Shown here piece after piece: positions 7,207 to 48,087 of a stretch of DNA of 64,000 nt (position 1 is its first letter; each line of letters opens with the position of its first letter). The notes under the pieces were generated by a model. It was not told the DNA's origin and made no database searches. It saw nothing but the letters and a program-made list of their open reading frames with translations. The translations under genes were made by a program, and so were the position numbers. Source of the stretch: an uncultured Candidatus Saccharibacteria bacterium (GTDB lineage: Bacteria; Patescibacteriota; Minisyncoccia; Phycocordibacterales; G965230995); assembly GCA_965230995.1 (NCBI GenBank), contig OZ246398.1, forward strand, positions 464,213 through 528,212, given 5' to 3'.

Positions 7207-9897
7207 ATGCCACCGTTCAATGATTTTACGACAAAGGCGAAAGAAGCAATCAGAAAGGCGCACGAGCTTGCAATAGAAAGGGGACAAAATCACGTGAGCC
7301 CTCTGCATCTTTTGACTGCTTTGGTTTTGCAAGAAGAATCGATGGTAGCTTCTATCATAGACAAACTAGAAGTAGATTCGATATTACTTACAGATTCAAT
7401 TATCGATTCGATAGAGGTCGCAGAAGGTGCGAGAACCGTATCGCCTGCATATCAAATATATTTAACTCCAGAAATGGCGCGTGTCCTCGAGGACAGCGTT
7501 AGAATAGCAAAAGCTCTGGGTGATGAATTTGTATCCACAGAGCATCTATTCATTGCAATTTCAGATATCACTGGTCCGGCAAAAGATTTGCTACGAAGAT
7601 TCAAGATTACAAAAGAAAGCATAGAAAAAGTTCTCGAAGAATTAAAAAACAGTAAAGATGCAGATATACAAAAACCAAAGAGATTCAGGACTCTGCATAA
7701 ATACACAAGAAATCTCACAAAGCTCGCTTCAGAAAACAAACTCGATCCAGTCATCGGAAGAGATAAAGAAATTTCTCGAATAATACAGATTCTCTCGAGA
7801 AGAACAAAAAATAACCCGATATTGATAGGAGAAGCTGGTGTTGGAAAAACCGCAATCGTCGAAGGCTTAGCCACCAGAATTGCAACAGGTGATGTACCAG
7901 AATCATTAAAAGACAAAGAGATGGTTTCTCTTGATCTTGGCCTTCTTATTGCTGGTACAAAATACAGAGGAGAATTCGAGGAAAGACTAAAGGCTCTCCT
8001 CAAAGATATAGAAAAATCAGACGGAAAGATAATTCTTTTTGTTGATGAAATTCATACAATAGTCGGAGCCGGTTCTTCAGAAGGTTCTATGGATGCTTCT
8101 AATATGCTAAAGCCCGCACTTGCAAGAGGCGAGCTTCGAACTGTTGGCGCGACAACTTTGCGTGAGTATCAAAAACATATCGAAAAGGATCCTGCTCTCA
8201 CAAGAAGATTTCAGCCTGTAATGGTTTCTGAACCTTCAATTGATGATGCGATGACTATTTTGCGAGGCTTAAAAGAAAAATACGAGCTCTATCACGGTGT
8301 CAGAATCACAGATGAAGCAATCAGGGCTGCTGTTAATTTATCTGCTAGATATATTTCAGATAGATTTTTGCCAGACAAAGCTGTTGACTTGATCGACGAA
8401 GCGTCTTCGCAATTAAAGATTTCTCTAGAAAATATGCCTCCGATTTTGCAAGAGACAAGATCAAAAGTGATGAAGCTTGAAATTGAGAGGGAAGCTTTAA
8501 ACAAAGAACTTTTGGATCACAAAGATTCAAAGATAGAAGACAGGCTAAAAGAAATTGAAAAAGCTGTTGCTGATTTGAAAGAAAAGACTGCCGAAATAGA
8601 GCTTAAATGGAAAAACGAAAAAGAAACAGTTTCTGACATAAAAAGAATTAAAAAAGATTTGGAAACCTTGAGACTCGAAGCCGAGGGTGCAGAAGCAAGG
8701 GCAGATTTGTCAAAAGCTGCTGAAATAAGATATGGAAAAATACCAGAACTAGAGAGAGAGCTTGATCAGAAAAGCAAGAGACTAAAAAGACTCCAGAGCT
8801 CTCGAAGAATATTAAAAGAAGAAATTACAGAACCGGACATTGCCGAAGTGGTTTCAAGATGGACTGGTGTACCTGTCACAAGGATGCTTGAGAGTGAAGC
8901 TGAAAAATTACAGAGAATGGAAGAAAAGCTTCACGAAAGAGTTGTCGGTCAAGAAGAAGCTGTCAAAAAAGTATCTGATACGATCAAGAGATCAAGAGCG
9001 GGGATTGCAGACCCAAACAAACCAATCGGATCGTTCTTGTTCCTTGGTCCAACTGGTGTTGGTAAAACAGAATTAACCAAAGCCTTGGCAGAATTTCTAT
9101 TTGATGATGAAAAGGCTCTCATCCGAGTCGATATGTCTGAATATATGGAGAAACATGCAGTGTCTAAAATAATCGGTGCTCCACCAGGATATGTTGGATA
9201 TGAAGAGGGTGGTACACTAACAGAACAAGTCAGACATAGACCATATTCTGTAATTCTCTTTGATGAAATTGAAAAAGCTCATCCCGATGCGTTTAATATC
9301 TTGCTCCAAGTCCTAGACAACGGAAGACTTACGGATGCAAAAGGTAGAACTGTTAATTTCAAAAACACAGTCATTATCCTTACTTCAAACATTGGAGCTC
9401 AGTACATAGACAAGATGGAGAAATTAGGATTCTCGAAAAGTGACAACAAGGAAAAAGAAAATTATGAAGATGTAAAATCTAAAGTCCTTGAGAGCTTGAA
9501 AGACCATTTCAAACCGGAATTCATAAACAGATTGGATGAAATAATCGTATTTGATGTGTTGTCAAGAGAAGCAATTTCAAAGATAGTCGAGATACAGATA
9601 TCTATGGTCAAAGAAAGATTGTCTCAGAAAGATGTGGCTCTCGAGGTTACAAATGATGCTCTGGAATATCTTGCAAAAGAAGGTTACAACCCTGAATACG
9701 GAGCAAGGCCTTTAAAGAGAATTATACAATCAAAGATTCTTAACCCAGTTGCGTCCCTTATGATTGGAAAGGGAATAACCAGAGGAGGTTCAATAACTAT
9801 TGGATTCAAAAAAGATGAATTAACATTCGATGTTAAAAAGGGGAGGCGTGGCTCGCTATTTCAAGAAGAAGTTATAAAGGAAACAGTGACATCATAA
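7207..9897 (+). CDS. clpB: ClpB chaperone (two AAA+ modules with long coiled-coil middle domain)
   Basis: N-domain, Walker A GEAGVGKT and GPTGVGKT, M-domain coiled coil; 896 aa. Confidence 0.9.
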
Positions 9898-18600: not shown

Positions 18601-18708
18601 TTCGTTCCACTCCAGAAAAATGCACAATCGGGCTTCAGTCCCTCACGAAAGGTTCCCCGAACCTTTCTCTTCGTCACACAAAAACCGCATAACGCGGTTT
18701 GTTGTTTG

Positions 18709-18790
18709 TGCCGAAGGAGGGACTTGAACCCTCATCCCTTGCGAGACACGATTTTGAGTCGTGCGCGTATACCAATTCCGCCACTTCGGC
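18709..18790 (-). tRNA. tRNA-Leu (anticodon CAA)
   Basis: Acceptor gccgaag/cttcggc, anticodon loop ctcaaaa, long variable arm, T-loop ttcaagt. Confidence 0.8.
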
Positions 18791-23845: not shown

Positions 23846-23985
23846 AAATTCAATGTTTATAACTAAAAATGAAAATGGTCAAGTGTCTATGTATTTAATC
23901 TAGCTTTGCATTAAAAAAATTTTTTGGCAAGTTTATATAAAAACACAGGGTGCGCGGGAACTTCGTTCCCGCGCACCCGCACCAC

Positions 23986-24591
23986 CTAGCCCACCAGCGC
24001 AGATCGCCTCGAAAGCACTCGCTTCACGAACTCGAGATCTCCCTTGATTGTTGGGTACATCGTTGATACCGAGGCTGGGGCAATCAATGTTCCTTGCCCG
24101 TTTTCTTCGACGGGAACGAGATCCCCCACGGTCTTTGCTGTGATGGGTACGAGCCCGCACATTCGGGAGACTTGACTCAGTTCACGATGTTCAACCCTCA
24201 TTGCGTATCTGAGGTGCAGAGCTCCGTGTGGTATTTTTCCTCTTTTGAAGCCATGCTTGGAGAGCCTCTCGGCGACAGATTGTCCAAAGAGCCCTGCCGC
24301 TTCTCTGACAAGCCTGTCTCTGATCGGGTCCTTGTCGTCGTCAGCACAAAGTTTCGCATAGTTGATATCGCAGACGAGCGAAAGTTCGAGGACACCCGGA
24401 AGGTCTTTGGCTATGTAGCCACTTTTCCTCTTTCGGGAATCGAACTCGGGTCTCCTTCTCAAAAACACAATTCTTCCTTGATTCTTGTGTATGGTGAACA
24501 ACAAGAGCCTGATCGTGCCTGTCATTTTTGCCTCACTTGGTTGGTGTAGGGTGGTTGAAAGAACTTCTCCGTAATTAAACACCACTTTCAT
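23986..24591 (-). CDS. Hypothetical protein in a GC-rich islet inserted between dprA and topA
   Basis: ~200-aa ORF. The ORF-track start is a TTG at 24603; the first ATG is at ~24591. Compositionally atypical; no recognisable domain. Confidence 0.4.
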   Translation of the reverse strand: MKVVFNYGEVLSTTLHQPSEAKMTGTIRLLLFTIHKNQGRIVFLRRRPEFDSRKRKSGYIAKDLPGVLELSLVCDINYAKLCADDDKDPIRDRLVREAAGLFGQSVAERLSKHGFKRGKIPHGALHLRYAMRVEHRELSQVSRMCGLVPITAKTVGDLVPVEENGQGTLIAPASVSTMYPTIKGDLEFVKRVLSRRSALVG

Positions 24592-24599
24592 TTTCAAAG

Positions 24600-25460
24600 T
24601 CAAATTTTTTGTATCAAACCTATTCTTTCTTCTATTGCTCCGTTTATTTCAAGTGACATCAAAATTGCTTGTGTTTCGCTTGCTCCGAATGGTGATAATC
24701 TCAAAATTTCATTTCTTGAAATAGGTGTAGAAATCATAGAAAGTATTTTTTCTTCTTCAGCAGTTAGATTAAATTTAATTTTTATTTGTTCTTTATTTTC
24801 TGAAACAAGACCGAGCGCCTCTAAAATATCTTCCGATTTTGTTATTGGTGTAGCTCCGAGCCGAATCAACATATGTGGTCCAGAAGAATTCGGTGAAAAA
24901 ATTGAACCAGGCACGGTATAAACATCTCTGTTGTAATCTGTTGCTAATCTAGACGTGATTAATGTTCCAGATTTTTCTTCGGCCTCGATCACTAAAACTG
25001 CATTAGAGAAACCTGCCATAATTCTGTTTCTTTGTGGAAATGTCCATGGCAGGGCTTTTTGCATTGGTTCAAATTCAGAAAAAAGCCCTCCTCCATTTTT
25101 TATTATTTCATCTACAAGACCTCTGTTATTTCTCGGGTAAATAACTTTTGGATCGAGCCCTGACCCTGGAATTGCAATAGTTTGCAAACCAGATTGTATT
25201 GCACTTTTATGTGCGATTGTGTCTATACCGATAGCCAAGCCAGAAACTATTGTAATAGGGAATCCACGCAAACCAGAAATTAGTTTTTCGCAAACTTCTT
25301 TTCCATACGGGCTGTATTTTCTCGAACCGACAACACATAACCGCTTGTTTTCCAATATTGGTTTTGTTCCGACATAATAGAGGTTCTTAGGAGGTTCGGT
25401 TATTTCGAATAACTCTTCTGGTAATTCTTCTTTTGTAATGTTTTCAATTCGATATGACAT
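24600..25460 (-). CDS. dprA: DNA processing protein DprA (Smf)
   Basis: DprA Rossmann-like core (…VVGSRKYSPYG…IVSGLAIGID…). The track start (25526) overlaps the next gene's 5' end; the internal Met MSYRIENI is the more plausible start. Confidence 0.7.
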   Translation of the reverse strand: MSYRIENITKEELPEELFEITEPPKNLYYVGTKPILENKRLCVVGSRKYSPYGKEVCEKLISGLRGFPITIVSGLAIGIDTIAHKSAIQSGLQTIAIPGSGLDPKVIYPRNNRGLVDEIIKNGGGLFSEFEPMQKALPWTFPQRNRIMAGFSNAVLVIEAEEKSGTLITSRLATDYNRDVYTVPGSIFSPNSSGPHMLIRLGATPITKSEDILEALGLVSENKEQIKIKFNLTAEEEKILSMISTPISRNEILRLSPFGASETQAILMSLEINGAIEERIGLIQKI

Positions 25461-25510
25461 AATATGAGATGATCGATTTTTGCTATATAATATCACAATA
25501 AGAAAACAAT

Positions 25511-26761
25511 ATGCTTGATATTGCATTTATACGTGAACATAAAGACATCGTTGAAAACGCCGTAAAACAAAAAGGTATCAAATTATCTGTCCCGCTTTCC
25601 GAATTGATAGAGCTTTCTCAAAAGAGAAAAGATATTTCACAAAAAATTAGCGACGCCAAGGAATCTCTCGCACTAATCTCTGCAAACGACCCATCGCAGA
25701 AAAAGTCTATGATAGAAAAACTTATTTCTGATTTAACTGCCGAGCTCTCAGAAATAGACAAAAGATATATCAAGGGAATGATGGATGTTCCAAATATAAT
25801 TTCTCCCGATACACCTATGGGGGACAAAAATGTTTCTCCTAGATTAATCAGGACAAACGGCGAAAAGAAAGCAAAAATAGAAAAAAGCGGAAAAGAAATC
25901 GCTTCCTTGGTAGGACTCTCGGATGAATCGATTCTAAAAAATGTTTCTTCTAATGGATTGGTCAGAAAATATGATTATATACTTTTGAGGAATTCTTTAT
26001 TTGCTTTCATTAGCGAAAAGCTTTCATCTGGAGAATTTATTGATTCTGTTATCAAAAAAAGTGGTTATGATATTAACCCTAGAAATTTTGAAACAATAGA
26101 AATTTTTCCATTTGCGAAAAAAGTCGTGTTAAAGAGAACTGCCTACGAATCAGATAATAAAAAGATATCTACAGAAGAAGAAAATCTTGTGGATACAGAT
26201 GCGATCTCCCCAGCAATTTTAATGGACAACACCCTCGAAGAAGATGAATTGCCACAGAGATATGTTTTGTCACTTCAATCTGGAATATTAGAAAAAGACA
26301 AACAAAATTTTTCATTGCAGGAACAAAATATTGAACTTAGGTCTTTTAGTCTACCGGAATATTCTATCCAAGAGCATGAATTTTTAGCACATAACGTAGA
26401 AAATATTTTATCTTTACTCGGACTTTCTTGTGAAGTAAAACTTATGCCAGCACACAGTTTGTCTTTGGCGCAAAACAGAGCCATATCAATCGCTGTTTGG
26501 TCGCCTAATTCAGAGAAATATATCGATGTATGTGATGTCGGATTAACTACCAGTTTTGAATCGAGAAGACTTGCCACAAGAGTCCGCCGTGTGGACGGGG
26601 GCAATGATCTCGTACATCAATGCAACGCACAAATTAAAATAGAAAAAATATTATTTTTGCTTTGCGAATATTTTGCAGATGAAAAGTTTTCTCTGATAAA
26701 AATTCCGGACGTATTAAAAAAATATATGTATGGAAGAGAAATGATAAACAAAGCAGTCTAA
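25511..26761 (+). CDS. Seryl-tRNA synthetase-like protein with degenerate class-II motifs 2 and 3 (pseudo-SerRS)
   Basis: N-terminal SerRS coiled-coil start MLDIAFIREH… and C-terminus …LVHQCNAQ…IPDVLKKYM align with SerRS. Motif-2 FRSEAG is replaced by LQSGIL and motif-3 GSGLAVGR by NAQIKIEK. Confidence 0.6.
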   Translation: MLDIAFIREHKDIVENAVKQKGIKLSVPLSELIELSQKRKDISQKISDAKESLALISANDPSQKKSMIEKLISDLTAELSEIDKRYIKGMMDVPNIISPDTPMGDKNVSPRLIRTNGEKKAKIEKSGKEIASLVGLSDESILKNVSSNGLVRKYDYILLRNSLFAFISEKLSSGEFIDSVIKKSGYDINPRNFETIEIFPFAKKVVLKRTAYESDNKKISTEEENLVDTDAISPAILMDNTLEEDELPQRYVLSLQSGILEKDKQNFSLQEQNIELRSFSLPEYSIQEHEFLAHNVENILSLLGLSCEVKLMPAHSLSLAQNRAISIAVWSPNSEKYIDVCDVGLTTSFESRRLATRVRRVDGGNDLVHQCNAQIKIEKILFLLCEYFADEKFSLIKIPDVLKKYMYGREMINKAV

Positions 26762-26765
26762 TATT

Positions 26766-27599
26766 ATGCAACCGACAATACAGTCAAAAAAAAGCAAGAA
26801 CGCTGAAAACAGGAGACGAAGAAAAAAGATATTTTTTTGGTTTTTGGTTCTCTGTGTTTTGGCTTTTGTTGCGATCATAATTTTTGCTCTGAAAACACCA
26901 AAACTTTCAATTTCTGATATTTCTGTATCCGGAATAGAAACAATGCAAGCTGATTCTATTATTTCACAGGCTAGGAAAACTATATCTGGAAAATATCTTT
27001 TCTTTTTTCCCAAAGACAATGTAATTGTCTATCCAGATAAAAAAATAATAGAAAATATTCTTTCTTTAGACAGCAGAATAATGGAGGCTTCGGTTTCTGT
27101 TGATAGAAAGAGAGTTTTACATATAAGCATAAAAGAATACACGCCATTTTTTGCGTGGTGTCATAGCCAAAAATGTTTCTATACAGATGAGAGCGGGTAC
27201 ATTTTTAGAGCAATTGATTACGACCCAAAAAACTTTTTTATAGTTTTCCGCAACGGGGCAAACAAAGACAATCCAATCGGTTCTTATTGGGCTGATGGTG
27301 ATATGGAAAATATCAAAGATATGATCGAATTTTTCAAGGTTATAGAAATGCCAGTAAAAGAAATATCTTTTATGGGTAATTCTGATTATTATTTCTATAT
27401 TGAAAATGGCACAGAATTTCGTGTTGATTTTGACGGATCAATAGAAACTACTCAAAGCTATTTAGATATATTTATTACACAGAATCTGGATTTCATTAAA
27501 AATTCTGATTTCGAATATGTCGATGCTCGTTTTGGAAAAAAGATTTATTACAAAGAAAAACAGGGTGGGGAAAAGTCTAATACAGAAAGTTCTATTTAG
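26766..27599 (+). CDS. FtsQ/DivIB-like cell-division protein (TM plus POTRA)
   Basis: Basic N-terminus, TM helix, POTRA-like VDRKRVLHISIKEYTPFFAW. Confidence 0.45.
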   Translation: MQPTIQSKKSKNAENRRRRKKIFFWFLVLCVLAFVAIIIFALKTPKLSISDISVSGIETMQADSIISQARKTISGKYLFFFPKDNVIVYPDKKIIENILSLDSRIMEASVSVDRKRVLHISIKEYTPFFAWCHSQKCFYTDESGYIFRAIDYDPKNFFIVFRNGANKDNPIGSYWADGDMENIKDMIEFFKVIEMPVKEISFMGNSDYYFYIENGTEFRVDFDGSIETTQSYLDIFITQNLDFIKNSDFEYVDARFGKKIYYKEKQGGEKSNTESSI

Positions 27600-27616: not shown

Positions 27617-28003
27617 ATGAATTTCCTTAGCGTTCTTTTTCTATATATATGGTGGCACTACACAACTGCCATAAAAGATGGTTTTGAAATATGGAAAAAA
27701 TTCGTTTGGTTTGTGTTCAATTTTTTCTCGGTACCGCTTTTAACGCGAACTTTTTTTTATAGGTTTGAGAGACTAGGCGAGAATTACAAAAAAGGATTTT
27801 CTATCACTGACAATCTTTCTGCATTTGTAGTAAATACAATGATGCGTTTGGTGGGAATGACCCTCCGTTCGATTATCATAATCGTCGGTCTTGTTGCTAC
27901 ATTTTTGGCTTGTGTCTTTGGTGTCATTGTCTTGATTCTCTGGATAATTTATCCATTACTTTTTGTCACAGCAATTATAATTGGAATAGCAAAAATTATA
28001 TGA
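27617..28003 (+). CDS. Small multi-TM membrane protein, hypothetical
   Basis: 128 aa, hydrophobic helices. Confidence 0.35.
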   Translation: MNFLSVLFLYIWWHYTTAIKDGFEIWKKFVWFVFNFFSVPLLTRTFFYRFERLGENYKKGFSITDNLSAFVVNTMMRLVGMTLRSIIIIVGLVATFLACVFGVIVLILWIIYPLLFVTAIIIGIAKII

Positions 28004-30381
28004 ATTTTGAACAATTAAAAAACCTCGCAAAATTCTATTCTCCATTAGTCACAATGGAAAAAGTTCTGTCACATAAAAATAGAAAATTCTTTGAACGTGC
28101 GTTTTTCTATTTAACAGTCATGATTTCCTTTCTATCACTCGGAATTTTCTTTGAAGTAAACGATAGGCTTTTGGGCACATTGCTTTTGTCTGGCTCGATG
28201 TGGTCTTTGTTTTTTGTTCTGGAATCTTTTTTCTATTCCCATTATTTCAAATCTGAAAAAAGCGTCTTGGGAGGATCGGAAGATATTAAAATGCCATATG
28301 AATTGGCAGAAGTAATTTTGCGAGCAGATGAAAATCACATAACCCAGAGTTTTCTCGAATCAAAAATTGGTCAATCAATATTAATCAGGCTCGGTATATC
28401 AAAAGACGAAATTGAAGAATTTTTTTCAAAGCGAAAAGACCCTCTTTCTTCTGACGAATTTGTATTAAAACAAAATAATTTATCACTCGGCTCTTTTGTT
28501 GGTGCAATAATGGAAAATGACAAAGAATTTTCTCAATTCCTGTTATCAAAAAATATTAAAAAAGAAGATGTAATAGGATGCAGTGATTGGGTAGAGAGAA
28601 TGTACCATGCCAGAAAAAAATACGAGAGATGGTGGAATATAGACAATATGGCGAGAGCAAAGGGAATTGGAAAAAAATGGGCGTATGGTATGACATATAG
28701 CCTCGAACAATATGGACGAGATATTTTGCCTAGAGTTTCCTCTGCTTCTTTTGATTTATACAAAGATGAAATAAACGAAATAGAGGCGGTACTTGCAAAA
28801 AGCGACGAAGCAAACGCTCTTTTGGTTTCTGAATATGGCAGGCCAAATCTAGATATTATAAATGGACTTGCAAAAGAAATAGAAGAAGGAACCGTTCTCA
28901 CGCCTCTCGAACACAAGAGAATTGTCTCTCTCGATTACGAGCTCTTGATTGCAAACAACGGCAGTAAAAATGCTTTAGAGAATGAAATCATTAAAGTTAT
29001 GAACGAAGCCGTAAAAGCCGGTAATGTAATCATTCTAATAGATGACCTCGTTGCTTTTGTCGCTAGTGCATATGCTGTCGGTGTAAATGTTATGGATATT
29101 ATCGACGACTATATTGCAGGTTCATATTTGCAGGTCATTTCTCTTTCGGATAAAAACGGCTTTGAAAAATATCTTCGTGTAAACGAAACAGTAGTAAAAA
29201 GATTTGAAGTAATAAAAGTTGCCGGCATAGACGAAAAAGCTCTCCTCAGAATTCTTTTGGATAGAGCATTGTATATAGAAAGTAAACAAAAAATATTTTT
29301 TACATTTCAGTCGCTCCGGGCGATAGTCACTTCTGCCGAAAGATATTATATGGATGGCTCTCCCGAAGACAAAGTGGCTGATTTTCTCTCTGAACTTGCT
29401 CCGCGAATGGAAATGAGAAAACAGATTCTTGTTTTGGATAGTGATGTATATGAGATGGTTACAGAAAAAACTGGTATACCAGTAGGCGAAGCCACAGTTT
29501 CTGAAAAAGAAAAACTTTCAAATCTCGAAGATATTATTTCAAAAAGAGTCATCGGACAAAAAGAAGCCGTAAAAGCAATTAGCGATGCTCTCCGCAGAAA
29601 TAGATCTGGTATTTCGAGCCAGAACAGGCCTATTGGTTCTTTCCTATTTCTCGGACCAACAGGAGTCGGAAAAACAGAAACATCAAAAGCTCTTGCAGAA
29701 GCCTTGTTTGGAAGCAGTAAAAAACTTTTGAGGTTAGATATGTCAGAATATAACACACCAGATGCAATCAATAGATTGATCGGCTCTCTTTCTGGTGACA
29801 AAGGTGTTCTTACGACATTAATTAGAGAAAATCCACACGGAGTGCTTCTGCTTGATGAATTCGAAAAAACTGATCCCGAAGTACTAAATCTATTTTTGCA
29901 AATATTGGACGAAGGTGTTTTTGCGGATGCCTTAGGAACAAAGGTTAATGCTCGAAATATGTTGTTTATCGCAACGACAAATGCCGGTAGTGATTTGCTA
30001 TGGGAATATACAAAAAATGGACAAAACATTTCTCAAAAGAAAACAGAAATAATTGATGAAATAATCAAGAGAAAATCTTTCAAACCAGAATTACTCAACC
30101 GTTTTGATGGCGTAATACTATTTCATCCACTTTCGGATGCTCAGCTAAGAGATATTGCAAAAATAATGTTAGAGAAGCTCGGCGAGAGACTCCGTGATCA
30201 GGGTATAAATTTTGTAGTTACAGAGGAGGCGATAGATATTTTAGTGAAAGAAGGAAGTGATCCTCAGTTCGGTGCAAGACCATTAAACAGAGCAATCCAA
30301 GACAAAATAGAATCTGCCGTTGCAAGAGATATTATGAATGGTGATTTGCAGGCAGGTATGACTTATGAATTTAAGGGCTAG
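28002..30381 (+). CDS. Membrane-anchored Clp/Hsp100-family AAA+ ATPase with a degenerate first nucleotide-binding domain
   Basis: Two N-terminal TM helices, Clp_N-like repeat, D1-like region lacking Walker A. Intact D2 (VIGQKEAV…GPTGVGKTE…) and C-terminal small domain. Start taken at MNFEQLK (28002). Confidence 0.65.
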
Positions 30382-33645: not shown

Positions 33646-33678
33646 GTATTTTGTAATCGTAATTATTGGGGGATCGTC
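33646..33678 (+). repeat. 33-nt direct repeat, copy 1 (gtattttgtaatcgtaattattgggggatcgtc): 22 nt of leader plus the first 11 nt of tRNA-Gln
   Basis: Exact copy at 33968-34000. The two copies bracket the small GIY-YIG gene. Confidence 0.75.
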
Positions 33679-41532: not shown

Positions 41533-42942
41533 CTAAAAAAGTATATTTAGGATAACTCCTTTTATCGTAATATAAGCAAAATATATGAAGAACAAGGATA
41601 TTGCTGTCATTATGATATTTGTAATCGTGTTAGGACGAAGCTCTCTTGGAAGTTTTGTATTGTTTAGATAAATAAGTAGTGGTGTATAAATTGCCATTGT
41701 GAGACCCCCGAGAACTCCTGATACAGTGAGCCATGTTAGTGGTTGATTGTGTGGAATTAGAATTGCACCAATCAAAACAACAAAAATGACTATTGCATAA
41801 TACATATGCGAAAGACTGTATTTTTTTATATGTCTAAAAATTGAATCCGGATGAGCGAGGTGTGTGTTTGTATATATAATATCGCTAACAATTCTCGCAA
41901 GTGCGTCTATAACAGTCCACATAACTGAAAATAGCATAAGGAATGCCATCACAAGAAAAAGTTTAAAACCAAATACTCCCCACAGATCACCAAAAATGTT
42001 TGCTTGTACCACAGCAATTTGCATACCTTCTGGGACTAGACCTTTTGGTGTAAGTACAGCATAGGCATTTAAGGAAAGCAAAATTAATGTGAGAAAACCA
42101 AGAAGCCAAAAAACGAGACCTTGATCAATTCGAACATAACGCATCCAGCCTTTCCATTTTTTCAAATTTTCTTCATTTATTGGAAACGTATGTCCGATAG
42201 GGGAAACAGCTTCGGTTTTTCCTGTAATTGGGTTTGCTATTCTACCTGAATAATGACCCATACCATTTCCTTTGTCTCGATACCAGAGAGAAATACAAAG
42301 ATTGAGCATTCCGCCAGCACCAGCAAATACAACAGCAGTAAGAAGTGTATTCATCGGAACATCTGCGGGAATACTTCCGATATTAAACAAGCCTTTGATT
42401 GCAAGTTTTAATGTCTCTGCATCAATATTAAAGAAACTAAAACCGAGCAATATCAAAAAGAAAAGTGGAACGATAATCTTGAGGGTTTTTTCAAGCATTC
42501 CATAAGCCATTTTTCCACTAAAGGTAAGGATCAGTACCAGAGCAAGGGCGACATATGCCCAAGAATTATTTGTTCCAAAACCAAAAAGTCCGTTTAAGGT
42601 TGTTCCGATAGAACCAGCCCATCCCGGCCAAATATACAAAAGTATTGCAGAGGGTAACCAAAAAATTGGTATCCATTTAATTAATCTTGCAGAAGATGTA
42701 AAAAAGCTTTCTCCTGTTGCTAATGTATGTCTTGCGACTTCTTGGTTTATAAAAAACTGACAAGAAATACCGATTAATGCAAGCCATAATAAATCAAGCC
42801 CATATTTTGTAACCAAGTGTGGCCAGAGAATTAATTCTCCTGTGCCCATCGCAAGACCCATCACTACAATTCCAACACCGACGGCTTTTGTCCAATGTGG
42901 TGGATTTGGCAAATCTTTTGTTCCAAGTTTTGGATATATCAT
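41533..42942 (-). CDS. Polytopic membrane transporter (10-12 TM; family uncertain)
   Basis: 469 aa, hydrophobic throughout. Confidence 0.35.
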   Translation of the reverse strand: MIYPKLGTKDLPNPPHWTKAVGVGIVVMGLAMGTGELILWPHLVTKYGLDLLWLALIGISCQFFINQEVARHTLATGESFFTSSARLIKWIPIFWLPSAILLYIWPGWAGSIGTTLNGLFGFGTNNSWAYVALALVLILTFSGKMAYGMLEKTLKIIVPLFFLILLGFSFFNIDAETLKLAIKGLFNIGSIPADVPMNTLLTAVVFAGAGGMLNLCISLWYRDKGNGMGHYSGRIANPITGKTEAVSPIGHTFPINEENLKKWKGWMRYVRIDQGLVFWLLGFLTLILLSLNAYAVLTPKGLVPEGMQIAVVQANIFGDLWGVFGFKLFLVMAFLMLFSVMWTVIDALARIVSDIIYTNTHLAHPDSIFRHIKKYSLSHMYYAIVIFVVLIGAILIPHNQPLTWLTVSGVLGGLTMAIYTPLLIYLNNTKLPRELRPNTITNIIMTAISLFFIYFAYITIKGVILNILF

Positions 42943-42953
42943 AGAAAAATTAT

Positions 42954-42984
42954 AGCACGAATTTTGCGAAGCAAAATTCGTGCT
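42954..42984. promoter_or_regulatory. Palindrome agcacgaattttgc-gaa-gcaaaattcgtgct between divergent gene starts
   Basis: Same CGAATTTTGC-N3-GCAAAATTCG core as 33531-33559. Confidence 0.45.
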
Positions 42985-42995
42985 AAAATATAAAC

Positions 42996-43517
42996 ATGAT
43001 GTACAAAATAGGTGACGTTGTTTCTGTTAATAACAAAATGCAAAAGGGATATTCTTTTGTAATTTCAGAAAAAGAAGGTCAAAATTTTCATCCAGATTTT
43101 CGCCCGGATCTTTCTCCAAAGGAAATGCTCGAAATAGGTGTCTTTGGCGGAAAATATATGAGCGATATGCCAAGCGAATATCCAAAAGATTGGTTTAAAA
43201 ATGCAAAACTTACAACTGACGGAAAAAGACACGAGGAATTGAATTTTTTCAAAATAAATGCAAGTCAACCTCTATCTGTTTGGAGGAAAAAAGGATGGAT
43301 AAATGAAATGGACCCACGCGGTTGGTTTGAATGGTATTGCAGATATTATCTCGGAAGAAGAGAAAAAGACGAAGACGAAAGGCAAATAAAACGCTGGAAG
43401 GCCATAAAAAGACATATTGGCCAAATTGTAAAAAACTGCAAGGCTGGAGATCAGTTTTGCCGTCCAAAACAGAAACAGGCTATTCTCCACTGGGCATATG
43501 ACAGTAGAAAAATGTGA
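42996..43517 (+). CDS. Hypothetical basic protein (PRGWFEWYCRYYLGRR motif)
   Basis: 173 aa; no confident family assignment. Confidence 0.3.
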   Translation: MMYKIGDVVSVNNKMQKGYSFVISEKEGQNFHPDFRPDLSPKEMLEIGVFGGKYMSDMPSEYPKDWFKNAKLTTDGKRHEELNFFKINASQPLSVWRKKGWINEMDPRGWFEWYCRYYLGRREKDEDERQIKRWKAIKRHIGQIVKNCKAGDQFCRPKQKQAILHWAYDSRKM

Positions 43518-46512: not shown

Positions 46513-48087
46513 TTAATTTATCTTGAGAGGGCAAGCTAGTGTAGTACTTTTAATTGGAGCAATTATTTCACGAACCCTCGTGTCATCTTTTGAATCTATA
46601 CAAAATATACCTTCTTCTGGAATTTCTACTGATACTGCCCAGTCTGTTGCGTTTCCTGTTGCTGGTTTACCACAAACAATCTTTGCTTCAGGGAAATCAA
46701 TCGTTATTTTGCTTAATACTTTTTTTATGTCTGCGCTCTGTGTTTTTTTGTTTGCTCCGCATACTCCGTTATAGTTTTTATTATCAATACTTTCGTAATA
46801 TGCATAATTTCCAATATCAAGTAAATACGACTCTATTATCCTTTTTGGATTTGAAGAACTAAAGACACCCATTAATTCTTCAAAAGTCATCCATTCATCA
46901 GGTGGGTATATTTCTACGGGAACGTTATAGTTAGTAATATTTAATGTGACATCTAAATCAGCAGACATAATTGCAGGTGTGCTAGTAATATCTGTTGCTT
47001 TTAAGTTCAATCTGTAGAGAAGATTGTCTTTTGTACCTATAAAGGCATACAGTAATATTTTGTCTAGATCAGATGAAGCGTTATTTAATTCTGCTATTTC
47101 AGAATCAGACAAGTCGTTTCCGGTAACTTCCTTTTGAGCTTCTGTAATAAATTTTAGTAATTTTCCTTGGTCAATTGAAATTTTATATTTTCTTGTTTTT
47201 ACACCTGAGATTTCTTCTACACCATCTTTTTCCGCCTTTATAGGGTTATTTTTTTGGAATATTGGATATATCTTTTGATATGTCTCGTTATCAAATGAAT
47301 CAACTGGAACTGGGATTGGTGCACTTGTTGTTAGTGTTTCTAGACCTTGGCTAATTGGAATTGAAAACCAGTTTCCGATAATTGGCGAAAAATCAATAAA
47401 CATTGATAATATTGCAGGTACGCTTGTTACCTGTACATACAAATTTTCATCACCTGGCATTTTTACTGATGCCTGTACTGAATTATTTTCTGTATCTTCA
47501 CCCATTGTTGCTTTGACTGTAAGATCTGCCTTGTCTACTATTTTATCAGTAATAGAAACTTTTCCTGATATGCTCATATCTAAATTGTCGCTAGGACTGT
47601 CTTTAACTGTGATTTTTGTTTCTAGAGAATAGCTAAAAGATGAAGTTTTTTCCATTGCTTCCACGACGTCCTCAAAAATTGATAGAGCATTGCTTCCGCC
47701 CCATTTTGCATAAGCAAGAGTTCCTCCTACTGCAATTATTATAATAACAGCTACAATTGCTGTGATTTTTAGAACAGCGCTATGTCCGTTGTTTGGTGCC
47801 GTAGATACAGACGAATTAGACATCAATGGTTCTGGCTGTGTTGTTCCCATGTTTTGTTCCGGCTTTATTTCAGGTGTGGTTGTTTCTGTCACTTCAGGTA
47901 CTGTCTCTGTGACTTCTTTCTTTGTGTTTGCAAAAGACATACTTTGACCAGCCTCGATTTCTCGAAAGGCTTGGTCGATATCAGATTTTGTCCAATTATT
48001 TGGGAGGAGTTCTTCTATTATTATTTCTTTTGTTGCCCCTTGAGACAAACGTTTTGAAATGTACTGATTTAATTCAGGGTATGACAT
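46513..48087 (-). CDS. Hypothetical single-TM protein with large extracytoplasmic domain
   Basis: 524 aa; N-terminal cytoplasmic segment, TM, long Ser/Thr-rich region. Confidence 0.35.
   Translation of the reverse strand: MSYPELNQYISKRLSQGATKEIIIEELLPNNWTKSDIDQAFREIEAGQSMSFANTKKEVTETVPEVTETTTPEIKPEQNMGTTQPEPLMSNSSVSTAPNNGHSAVLKITAIVAVIIIIAVGGTLAYAKWGGSNALSIFEDVVEAMEKTSSFSYSLETKITVKDSPSDNLDMSISGKVSITDKIVDKADLTVKATMGEDTENNSVQASVKMPGDENLYVQVTSVPAILSMFIDFSPIIGNWFSIPISQGLETLTTSAPIPVPVDSFDNETYQKIYPIFQKNNPIKAEKDGVEEISGVKTRKYKISIDQGKLLKFITEAQKEVTGNDLSDSEIAELNNASSDLDKILLYAFIGTKDNLLYRLNLKATDITSTPAIMSADLDVTLNITNYNVPVEIYPPDEWMTFEELMGVFSSSNPKRIIESYLLDIGNYAYYESIDNKNYNGVCGANKKTQSADIKKVLSKITIDFPEAKIVCGKPATGNATDWAVSVEIPEEGIFCIDSKDDTRVREIIAPIKSTTLACPLKIN

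Follow-up and report, generated by a model that had tools for sequence, protein, structure and literature searches.

The 64,000-nucleotide stretch analyzed here (hereafter the window; positions 464,213 to 528,212 of contig OZ246398.1, assembly GCA_965230995.1, from an uncultured Candidatus Saccharibacteria bacterium) carries a gene of seryl-tRNA synthetase (SerRS) ancestry that no longer encodes the active site of this enzyme. The gene descends from the 'type A' SerRS of Paceibacteria and stands at the ancestral serS locus. In its product the fold of SerRS and the tRNA-binding domain at the N-terminus are retained, while the residues that bind ATP (the arginines of motifs 2 and 3 and the stacking Phe) and serine (the Glu residues of TxE and YRE..S) are lost, and what was the motif-2 loop is evolving free of constraint. 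In two lineages whose proteins are 45% identical, the gene is intact and under purifying selection. Since it is kept in both after the loss of its catalytic residues, a new, non-catalytic role is probable. The interpretation that we favor, and to which we give somewhat better than even chances, is that the native serS turned in place into a conserved pseudoenzyme whose function is centered on the tRNA-binding arm, with a working SerRS encoded elsewhere in the genome.

The open reading frame (ORF) described previously, together with the N- and C-terminal sequences quoted for it, was borne out by the ORF list (Table 1), and the resemblance to SerRS extends along its whole length. Residues 1-406 align to positions 1-418 of the serS equivalog profile TIGR00414, i.e., the homology is that of a full-length SerRS. 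The N-terminal domain PF02403 (Seryl_tRNA_N) passes its gathering score at residues 1-96 (31.7 vs 28.2 bits), and the class II core PF00587 stays under its own (24.9 vs 29.3 bits). All phmmer matches among the PDB sequences are SerRS (best E = 7.8e-16), as are the best 50 Foldseek matches in the PDB (probability 1.0, template modeling score 0.51-0.58), so that the SerRS fold is present. The AlphaFold2 model, with a predicted local distance difference test (pLDDT) score of 74.3, contains the class II sheet, preceded at the N-terminus by two long antiparallel helices (29-56 and 62-92); its confidence is low in the motif-2 loop (pLDDT below 50 at residues 256-269) and at residues 199-233. Of the canonical sequence elements, the N-terminal MLDIxFIRE, VPNI.S.DTP.G, FxxRRLxxRxR, and the C-terminal IPxVLxxYM are kept, and the length, domain order, and genomic slot are those of canonical SerRS. 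The TIGR00414 score is nevertheless 90.7 bits, more than 200 bits below the curated cutoff of 301.65, vs 387-496 bits in canonical relatives (P0002, 393.9; P0005, 387.0; P0018, 496.2; the syntenic SerRS of locus L095, 453.5); TIGR00415 and NF002120 gave no match.

The fate of the catalytic motifs was followed in MAFFT alignments of the query protein with 12 and then with 62 canonical SerRS. As a control, TopA was used to fetch the syntenic loci in 80 related genomes, and 18 signature positions were scored. The query keeps 4 of the 18, vs 14-18 in each of the 59 syntenic SerRS of the relatives, which represent two very different sequence types. Substituted in the query are the Glu of TxE, the Arg and Glu of motif-2 fRxE, the R.HQF segment, the Glu of YRE..S, and the Arg of motif 3; of these residues, the two glutamates of TxE and RE.S, the Arg and the Glu of motif 2, and the Arg of motif 3 are present in 59/59 syntenic sequences. 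The canonical motif 2, FRREAGxxGKDxxGIxRxHQFxKxE, is represented by LSLQSGILEKDKQNFSLQEQ--NIE, where the Arg, Glu, His, and Phe are all replaced, although 59/59 relatives have them, and the GR of motif 3 has become EK. Between the latter two motifs R352, R353, and L354 are invariant across all aligned sequences. The loss of the motif-2 and motif-3 arginines had been proposed in a preliminary description of this DNA on the basis of a by-eye alignment, with the caveat that this alignment could be shifted; both losses stand, and neither set of alignments brings back an intact motif 2 or 3. A 'shortened arm' was considered as another mark of degeneration and rejected, as an arm of the same 65 residues in length is present in P0002, the canonical sequence closest to the query.

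The same ablation is found in a second organism. A search with HMMER of 1.84 billion cluster representatives retrieved P0014 (E = 1.9e-93; 45-46% identity), an intact ORF of 417 amino acids (aa) from the JGI metagenome contig Ga0172380_10034566, with the same synteny as in the query. It keeps 5 of the 18 signature positions, has ES in place of the motif-3 GR, and scores 78.6 bits with TIGR00414. No members beyond the query (P0001) and P0014 were found by exhaustive HMMER, JGI metagenome, and GTDB scans, or by a two-member profile search of 5.8 billion proteins; the family thus counts two members among ~15 billion proteins. Neighboring proteins of these two genomes are 59-69% identical, vs 45% for the SerRS-like pair. 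The proportion of nonsynonymous differences in this pair (pN 0.40) is lower than that of synonymous ones (pS 0.65), synonymous sites being saturated between the two genomes (pS 0.65-0.75), and its nonsynonymous divergence (dN) is about twice that of the neighbors and the highest in the cluster. At the given composition, 416 codons would lack a stop with a probability of 3e-15, and 7-31 stops occur in the remaining five frames of the gene. Intact ORFs and pN below pS therefore point to a coding gene that is under constraint, purifying selection being relaxed but still at work.

Comparison of the two degenerate proteins indicates where this constraint lies. The motif-2 loop (252-274) is 4-6% identical between the query and P0014, vs 61-83% (mean 76%) in canonical pairs. 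Several other segments are more similar in the degenerate pair than in canonical relatives, namely the N-terminal helix 1-27 (67% vs 49%) and the blocks 233-251 (84% vs 60%), 275-302 (64% vs 54%), and 343-368 (73% vs 65%). The N-terminal domain is 52% identical and the core 42%; the ratio of these two identities, 1.23, is higher than in all 66 canonical pairs (mean 0.74, maximum 1.18). These figures show a catalytic loop that drifts freely within a retained fold, and a tRNA-binding domain that has become, in relative terms, the best conserved module. Together, the ablated motifs, the shortfall of more than 200 bits in the TIGR00414 score, and the unconstrained former motif-2 loop support the term 'pseudo-synthetase' that the preliminary description had introduced.

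The term 'paralog' used there, on the other hand, does not agree with the genomic context. The gene order ParB, RelA/SpoT, TopA, DprA, divergent SerRS-like gene, FtsQ-like protein, 128-aa membrane protein, ClpB-like ATPase, Dus, and polymerase III subunit is also the neighborhood of the nearest canonical SerRS, P0005 and P0002, in their own genomes, and a SerRS gene adjoins dprA-topA in 59 of the 80 GTDB relatives. In the remaining 21 no serS was found beside dprA-topA; about 8 of these have ample upstream flank, which means that serS is able to sit elsewhere in this clade, and the others are short or truncated contigs. A neighbor-joining tree places the query, on a very long stem, inside the clade formed by the type A SerRS of Paceibacteria (root-to-tip distance 2.2-2.5 for the degenerate sequences, vs 1.2-1.3 for all canonical ones), and it shares the insertion between the motif-1 helix and strand that is specific to type A. 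Neighboring proteins are 45-67% identical to their orthologs in loci L003 and L006, vs 30-31% for the SerRS-like protein, the canonical SerRS of L003 and L006 being 56% identical to each other; the acceleration is thus particular to this gene. The conserved neighborhood and the nesting in the SerRS clade of the relatives imply that a native serS degenerated in place and that the gene is not an extra copy; as the positional ortholog of their canonical serS, placed by phylogeny inside their clade, it cannot well be called an added paralog. The relatives are annotated as Candidatus Nomurabacteria, Paceibacterota, or Minisyncoccia, and since the closest TopA is just 71% identical, the lineage of the query, a CPR bacterium with a small genome, is fairly isolated within Paceibacteria.

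The slot itself has been occupied by more than one kind of SerRS. In the loci of the relatives (L093-L172; TopA 63-71% identical) two deeply divergent, catalytically intact types are found: type A in 9 loci (65-83% identity to P0005, ~435 aa, motif 3 NDATA..GR, an extra insertion after the motif-1 helix) and type B in 50 loci (33-43% identity to P0005, ~420 aa). Two types in one slot suggest that SerRS was replaced in situ or went through a burst of evolution in the clade, and such events may form the background of the degenerate form. A database SerRS from outside the window, P0016, has Trp at many conserved Gly positions (e.g., EAWSSWKD, CTWDMW) and probably comes from an organism with UGA = Gly, translated in the database with UGA as Trp.

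In the scenario that we favor, the pseudo-synthetase would be unable, judging from its motifs, to form seryl-adenylate or to charge tRNA, and tRNA-Ser would be charged by a second functional SerRS encoded elsewhere in the genome. The second SerRS was probably acquired or duplicated before the split of the two lineages, freeing the native copy from catalytic constraint, and catalysis would have been lost in the common ancestor of the query and P0014 lineages. The protein would survive through a non-catalytic role centered on its N-terminal arm. The most plausible such role, by analogy with the animal protein SLIMP, is the binding of tRNA-Ser within a heterodimer, where the protein would be the inactive subunit and would donate the arm to an active SerRS; alternatively, the protein may be a stand-alone tRNA-binding factor. 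The regulatory or tRNA-binding function suggested in the preliminary description is compatible with these data.

SLIMP, which has an ablated catalytic pocket and no activity alone, has kept its coiled coil, and this element is needed for tRNA recognition in a heterodimer with an active SerRS that lacks the arm, in insects the mitochondrial SerRS2-alpha (PMC10570016). It resembles the query in being a full-length SerRS derivative with lost pocket residues and a retained coiled-coil domain, and is its closest known analogue. However, SLIMP originated by duplication as a mitochondrial paralog in metazoans and has a SerRS partner, whereas the query is bacterial, stands at the ancestral serS locus, has also lost the motif-1 prolines, and is accompanied by no such partner in the window and the adjacent 10 kb. 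Since the query is nested in the type A clade of Paceibacteria and has the insertion of this clade, its origin is independent, which makes SLIMP an analogue and not a member of the same family. The case of antibiotic-resistant SerRS duplicates, such as the albomycin-resistant SerRS2, illustrates a possible route by which a second SerRS renders the native copy redundant (PMC9437257, PMC5388404); in those duplications both copies are catalytically active, whereas in the query it is the native copy that lacks the active site. A bacterial full-length SerRS pseudoenzyme was not found reported in the searchable literature.

A carrier-protein-ligase-like enzyme had been named in the preliminary description as another possibility. 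The amino acid:carrier protein (aa:CP) ligases, as reportedly described by Mocibob et al. in 2010, derive from methanogen-type SerRS, have no N-terminal tRNA-binding domain, and keep active adenylation motifs. The architecture of the query is the opposite, with the arm present and the motifs absent, and such repurposing was rejected on these grounds; no carrier-protein gene adjoins the query, its neighbors being dprA and the FtsQ-like gene. The aa:CP ligases do exemplify SerRS homologs repurposed from tRNA charging (PMC9437257).

Several observations speak against the favored scenario. Both motif-1 prolines, which belong to the dimer interface, are substituted in the query and in P0014, whose identity in region 154-200 is no higher than 38%, and the nearly invariant Asn of the arm (RN) is replaced; on both counts a simple SLIMP-like model loses strength. 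The conserved blocks of the core may reflect fold stability alone. The partner SerRS is hypothetical, and no second SerRS is present in the window or in the 10 kb past its right edge that are covered by Logan contigs, that is, in ~74 kb of the 742,714-bp contig. Finally, saturation of the synonymous sites makes dN/dS only semi-quantitative, and the conservation statistics rest on one sequence pair.

Some of the same evidence could be explained by a remodeled pocket, where the floor of the old active site has been rebuilt for another ligand or partner, as in a regulatory or sensor subunit, or for a new non-adenylating chemistry, with tRNA binding incidental or lost. The beta-sheet blocks that line the old pocket are the best conserved ones in the pair and their residues are unlike those of canonical SerRS: SPAILMD..LEEDELP.RY is 84% identical, and the motif-3 remnant (DLVHQCNA.I.IE) is 55% identical between the query and P0014, vs 20% to the canonical consensus. 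Disappearance of the conserved arm Asn would also fit such a change. A precedent is HisZ, the HisRS-like regulatory subunit of ATP phosphoribosyltransferase, which has no adenylation activity and a non-catalytic role (PMC9437257). Like the query, HisZ is a bacterial protein derived from a class II aminoacyl-tRNA synthetase (aaRS) and kept for a non-catalytic role, but it belongs to another aaRS family, has no anticodon-binding domain, works with HisG as a partner, and is widespread, whereas the query family has two members and keeps the tRNA-binding domain. The loops that would have to close the remodeled pocket (motif 2, TxE, and residues 303-342) are the least conserved parts of the pair (4-33%), conservation is relatively higher in the N-terminal domain than in the core, and the conserved neighborhood, which equals that of canonical serS, offers no candidate partner enzyme. 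We therefore regard a remodeled pocket as unlikely, although it is the explanation that comes next to the conserved pseudo-synthetase.

That an essential gene is degenerate at its ancestral locus and still kept by selection implies a hidden functional replacement elsewhere, and the genome probably does encode another functional SerRS. When seven canonical SerRS were compared with the 64-kb window by tblastn, the query locus alone was matched, apart from a weak hit to ORF 46513..48087 (E = 0.088) that was dismissed as a chance similarity, and Pfam scans of 16 larger or unannotated ORFs of the window detected no aaRS. Past the left edge of the window the coverage consists of one 2-kb contig. Two further sequences, P0280 and P0281, were considered as the second SerRS of this genome and rejected, being from unrelated samples.

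The position of the gene exactly at the ancestral serS locus and the ~74 kb free of another SerRS might also be read to mean that the query is the sole SerRS of a complete genome of ~0.74 Mb, tRNA-Ser being charged by a radically rebuilt active site unlike that of class II, or the SerRS or Ser-tRNA coming from a host, as the organism is a likely episymbiont. We consider this very improbable. The protein has neither the two ATP-binding arginines nor the serine-binding glutamates; a catalytic loop under conservation could not be as unalike as the motif-2 loops of the two members are; no gene of the cluster has a higher dN; and the ~8 flank-rich relatives without serS beside dprA-topA demonstrate that serS can be located elsewhere. 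To our knowledge, no free-living or episymbiotic bacterium is without SerRS activity.

A functionless relic, that is, a replaced serS drifting to loss and undisrupted so far, would account for the extreme rarity of the family and for the fastest evolution in the cluster (45% vs 59-69% identity for the neighbors, with the doubled dN). It is effectively excluded by the uninterrupted ~416-codon ORFs in two lineages with saturated synonymous divergence, which random sequence would hardly yield, by pN below pS and the many stops in the other five frames, and by the preserved length and domain order; a range of block identities from 84% to 4% is not that of neutral decay. Sequencing or assembly errors, or compensating frameshifts scrambling a normal serS, are effectively refuted, as the 416-aa protein has an exact copy in the NCBI and two Logan assemblies, the locus DNA in these three independent assemblies is 99.97-100% identical over ~15 kb, canonical motif peptides sought in the other reading frames of the gene occur nowhere at a matching place, and a second organism has the same ablation.

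Table 1. Features of the SerRS-derived gene and its flanks (positions in the window)
Feature	Position	Strand	Description	Basis
SerRS-derived pseudo-synthetase gene	25511..26761	+	416 aa, stop codon included	ORF list, TIGR00414, fold
N-terminal SerRS tRNA-binding domain	25511..25861	+	aa 1-117: N-helix, coiled-coil arm aa 28-92, VPNI..DTP.G linker	PF02403, AlphaFold2
TxE serine-binding loop remnant	26192..26203	+	canonical GSAEH -> DT-DA; signature Glu -> Asp	alignments
Motif-2 loop remnant	26264..26332	+	aa 252-274; fRxE, GKD-G, R.HQF gone; 5-residue deletion	alignments, AlphaFold2
YRETHS active-site strand remnant	26519..26536	+	YIDVCD in query	alignments
Retained SerRS block FESRRLATRVRR	26555..26590	+	canonical FQARRLxTRVRR	alignments
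Motif-3 remnant	26615..26674	+	aa 369-388; H.NDATA.A.GR -> HQCNAQ-IKIEK; Arg gone	alignments
Promoter-like site ATGAGA-16-TATAAT	25464..25491	+	20 nt upstream of start codon; weak -35	consensus match only
dprA	24600..25460	-	286 aa with corrected start; divergent neighbor	Logan gene calls
FtsQ-like membrane protein	26766..27599	+	277 aa	weak POTRA_1 FtsQ-type match, E = 0.0036

The SerRS-like gene has a GC content of 0.34 (0.29 at third codon positions), typical of the genome. The promoter-like site in front of it (Table 1) is the best consensus match in the region (10/12). Throughout the window a Shine-Dalgarno-like core precedes only 2 of 39 genes and many genes have a TATAAT-like box 10-20 nt upstream of ATG, a pattern that suggests short-leader or leaderless mRNAs. 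The FtsQ-like gene starts 4 nt after the stop of the SerRS-like gene, the same arrangement being found behind canonical serS in the relatives; no terminator-like site was seen between the two genes, and judging from this layout they are probably co-transcribed.

The preliminary description had noted an overlap with the 5' end of dprA and asked for a re-evaluation of gene starts. The overlap is an artefact that holds only for the longest-ORF start at 25526; the start did need revision, as gene callers and 287-aa orthologs put it at 25460. With the start codon at 25458-25460 the dprA product shares 53% identity, along 281 aa, with its ortholog of 287 aa in L003, and a 50-bp divergent intergenic region separates the two genes. 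On the other side of dprA, an insertion of 750 bp (23846-24600, with a GC-rich core at ~24000-24400) separates this gene from topA, its immediate neighbor in most relatives. The insertion has 53-54% GC, vs ~36% for the genome, and its two strands contain long overlapping ORFs, one of which, on the minus strand, has 201 aa and no Pfam match. No similar DNA or protein was found in any fetched locus, and the GC-rich island at 24000-24400 was rejected as a structured RNA (no Rfam match, folding z-score -0.09).

Among other features of the window, there are two Clp/Hsp100-type ATPases, at 7207-9897 and 28000-30381. A full ClpB has 896 aa with Clp_N and two AAA modules; the ClpB-like protein has 793 aa with AAA_2 and ClpB_D2-small only, and is always preceded by the 128-aa membrane protein, the pair being conserved downstream of serS in L006 and L008. 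The 53-bp divergent intergenic region 42943-42995, between the genes 41533..42942 (minus strand) and 42996..43517 (plus strand), contains the 15-mer GCAAAATTCGTGCTA upstream of both genes; from their sequence the paired 15-mers form a perfect inverted repeat, likely a shared operator or promoter. In the Logan contig L001 the match to the window begins at 18707, and the initial 1.4 kb of this contig (MiaA/IPPT, DUF1653) have no counterpart there; the junction falls exactly at tRNA-Leu CAA (18708-18790) and represents either a rearrangement at strain level or a break in the assembly. Position 33675 of the window, just before tRNA-Gln, is where both Logan contigs end.

Inactive derivatives of aminoacyl-tRNA synthetases are already known from bacteria (HisZ) and from animal mitochondria (SLIMP). 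So small a family has a limited wider reach in biology unless the gene is the sole SerRS; were that so, it would be the first such case for a cellular organism with its own translation apparatus. In practice, annotation and completeness pipelines could count the gene as serS, although it is almost certainly unable to charge tRNA, as far as its motifs tell. What is unusual about the conserved pseudo-synthetase is its route, an essential housekeeping gene having degenerated at its ancestral locus while selection preserves it. If the SLIMP-like interpretation is true, bacteria would have arrived independently at an asymmetric synthetase by ablation of one active site, and the protein would provide a natural system for tRNA recognition by the arm only.

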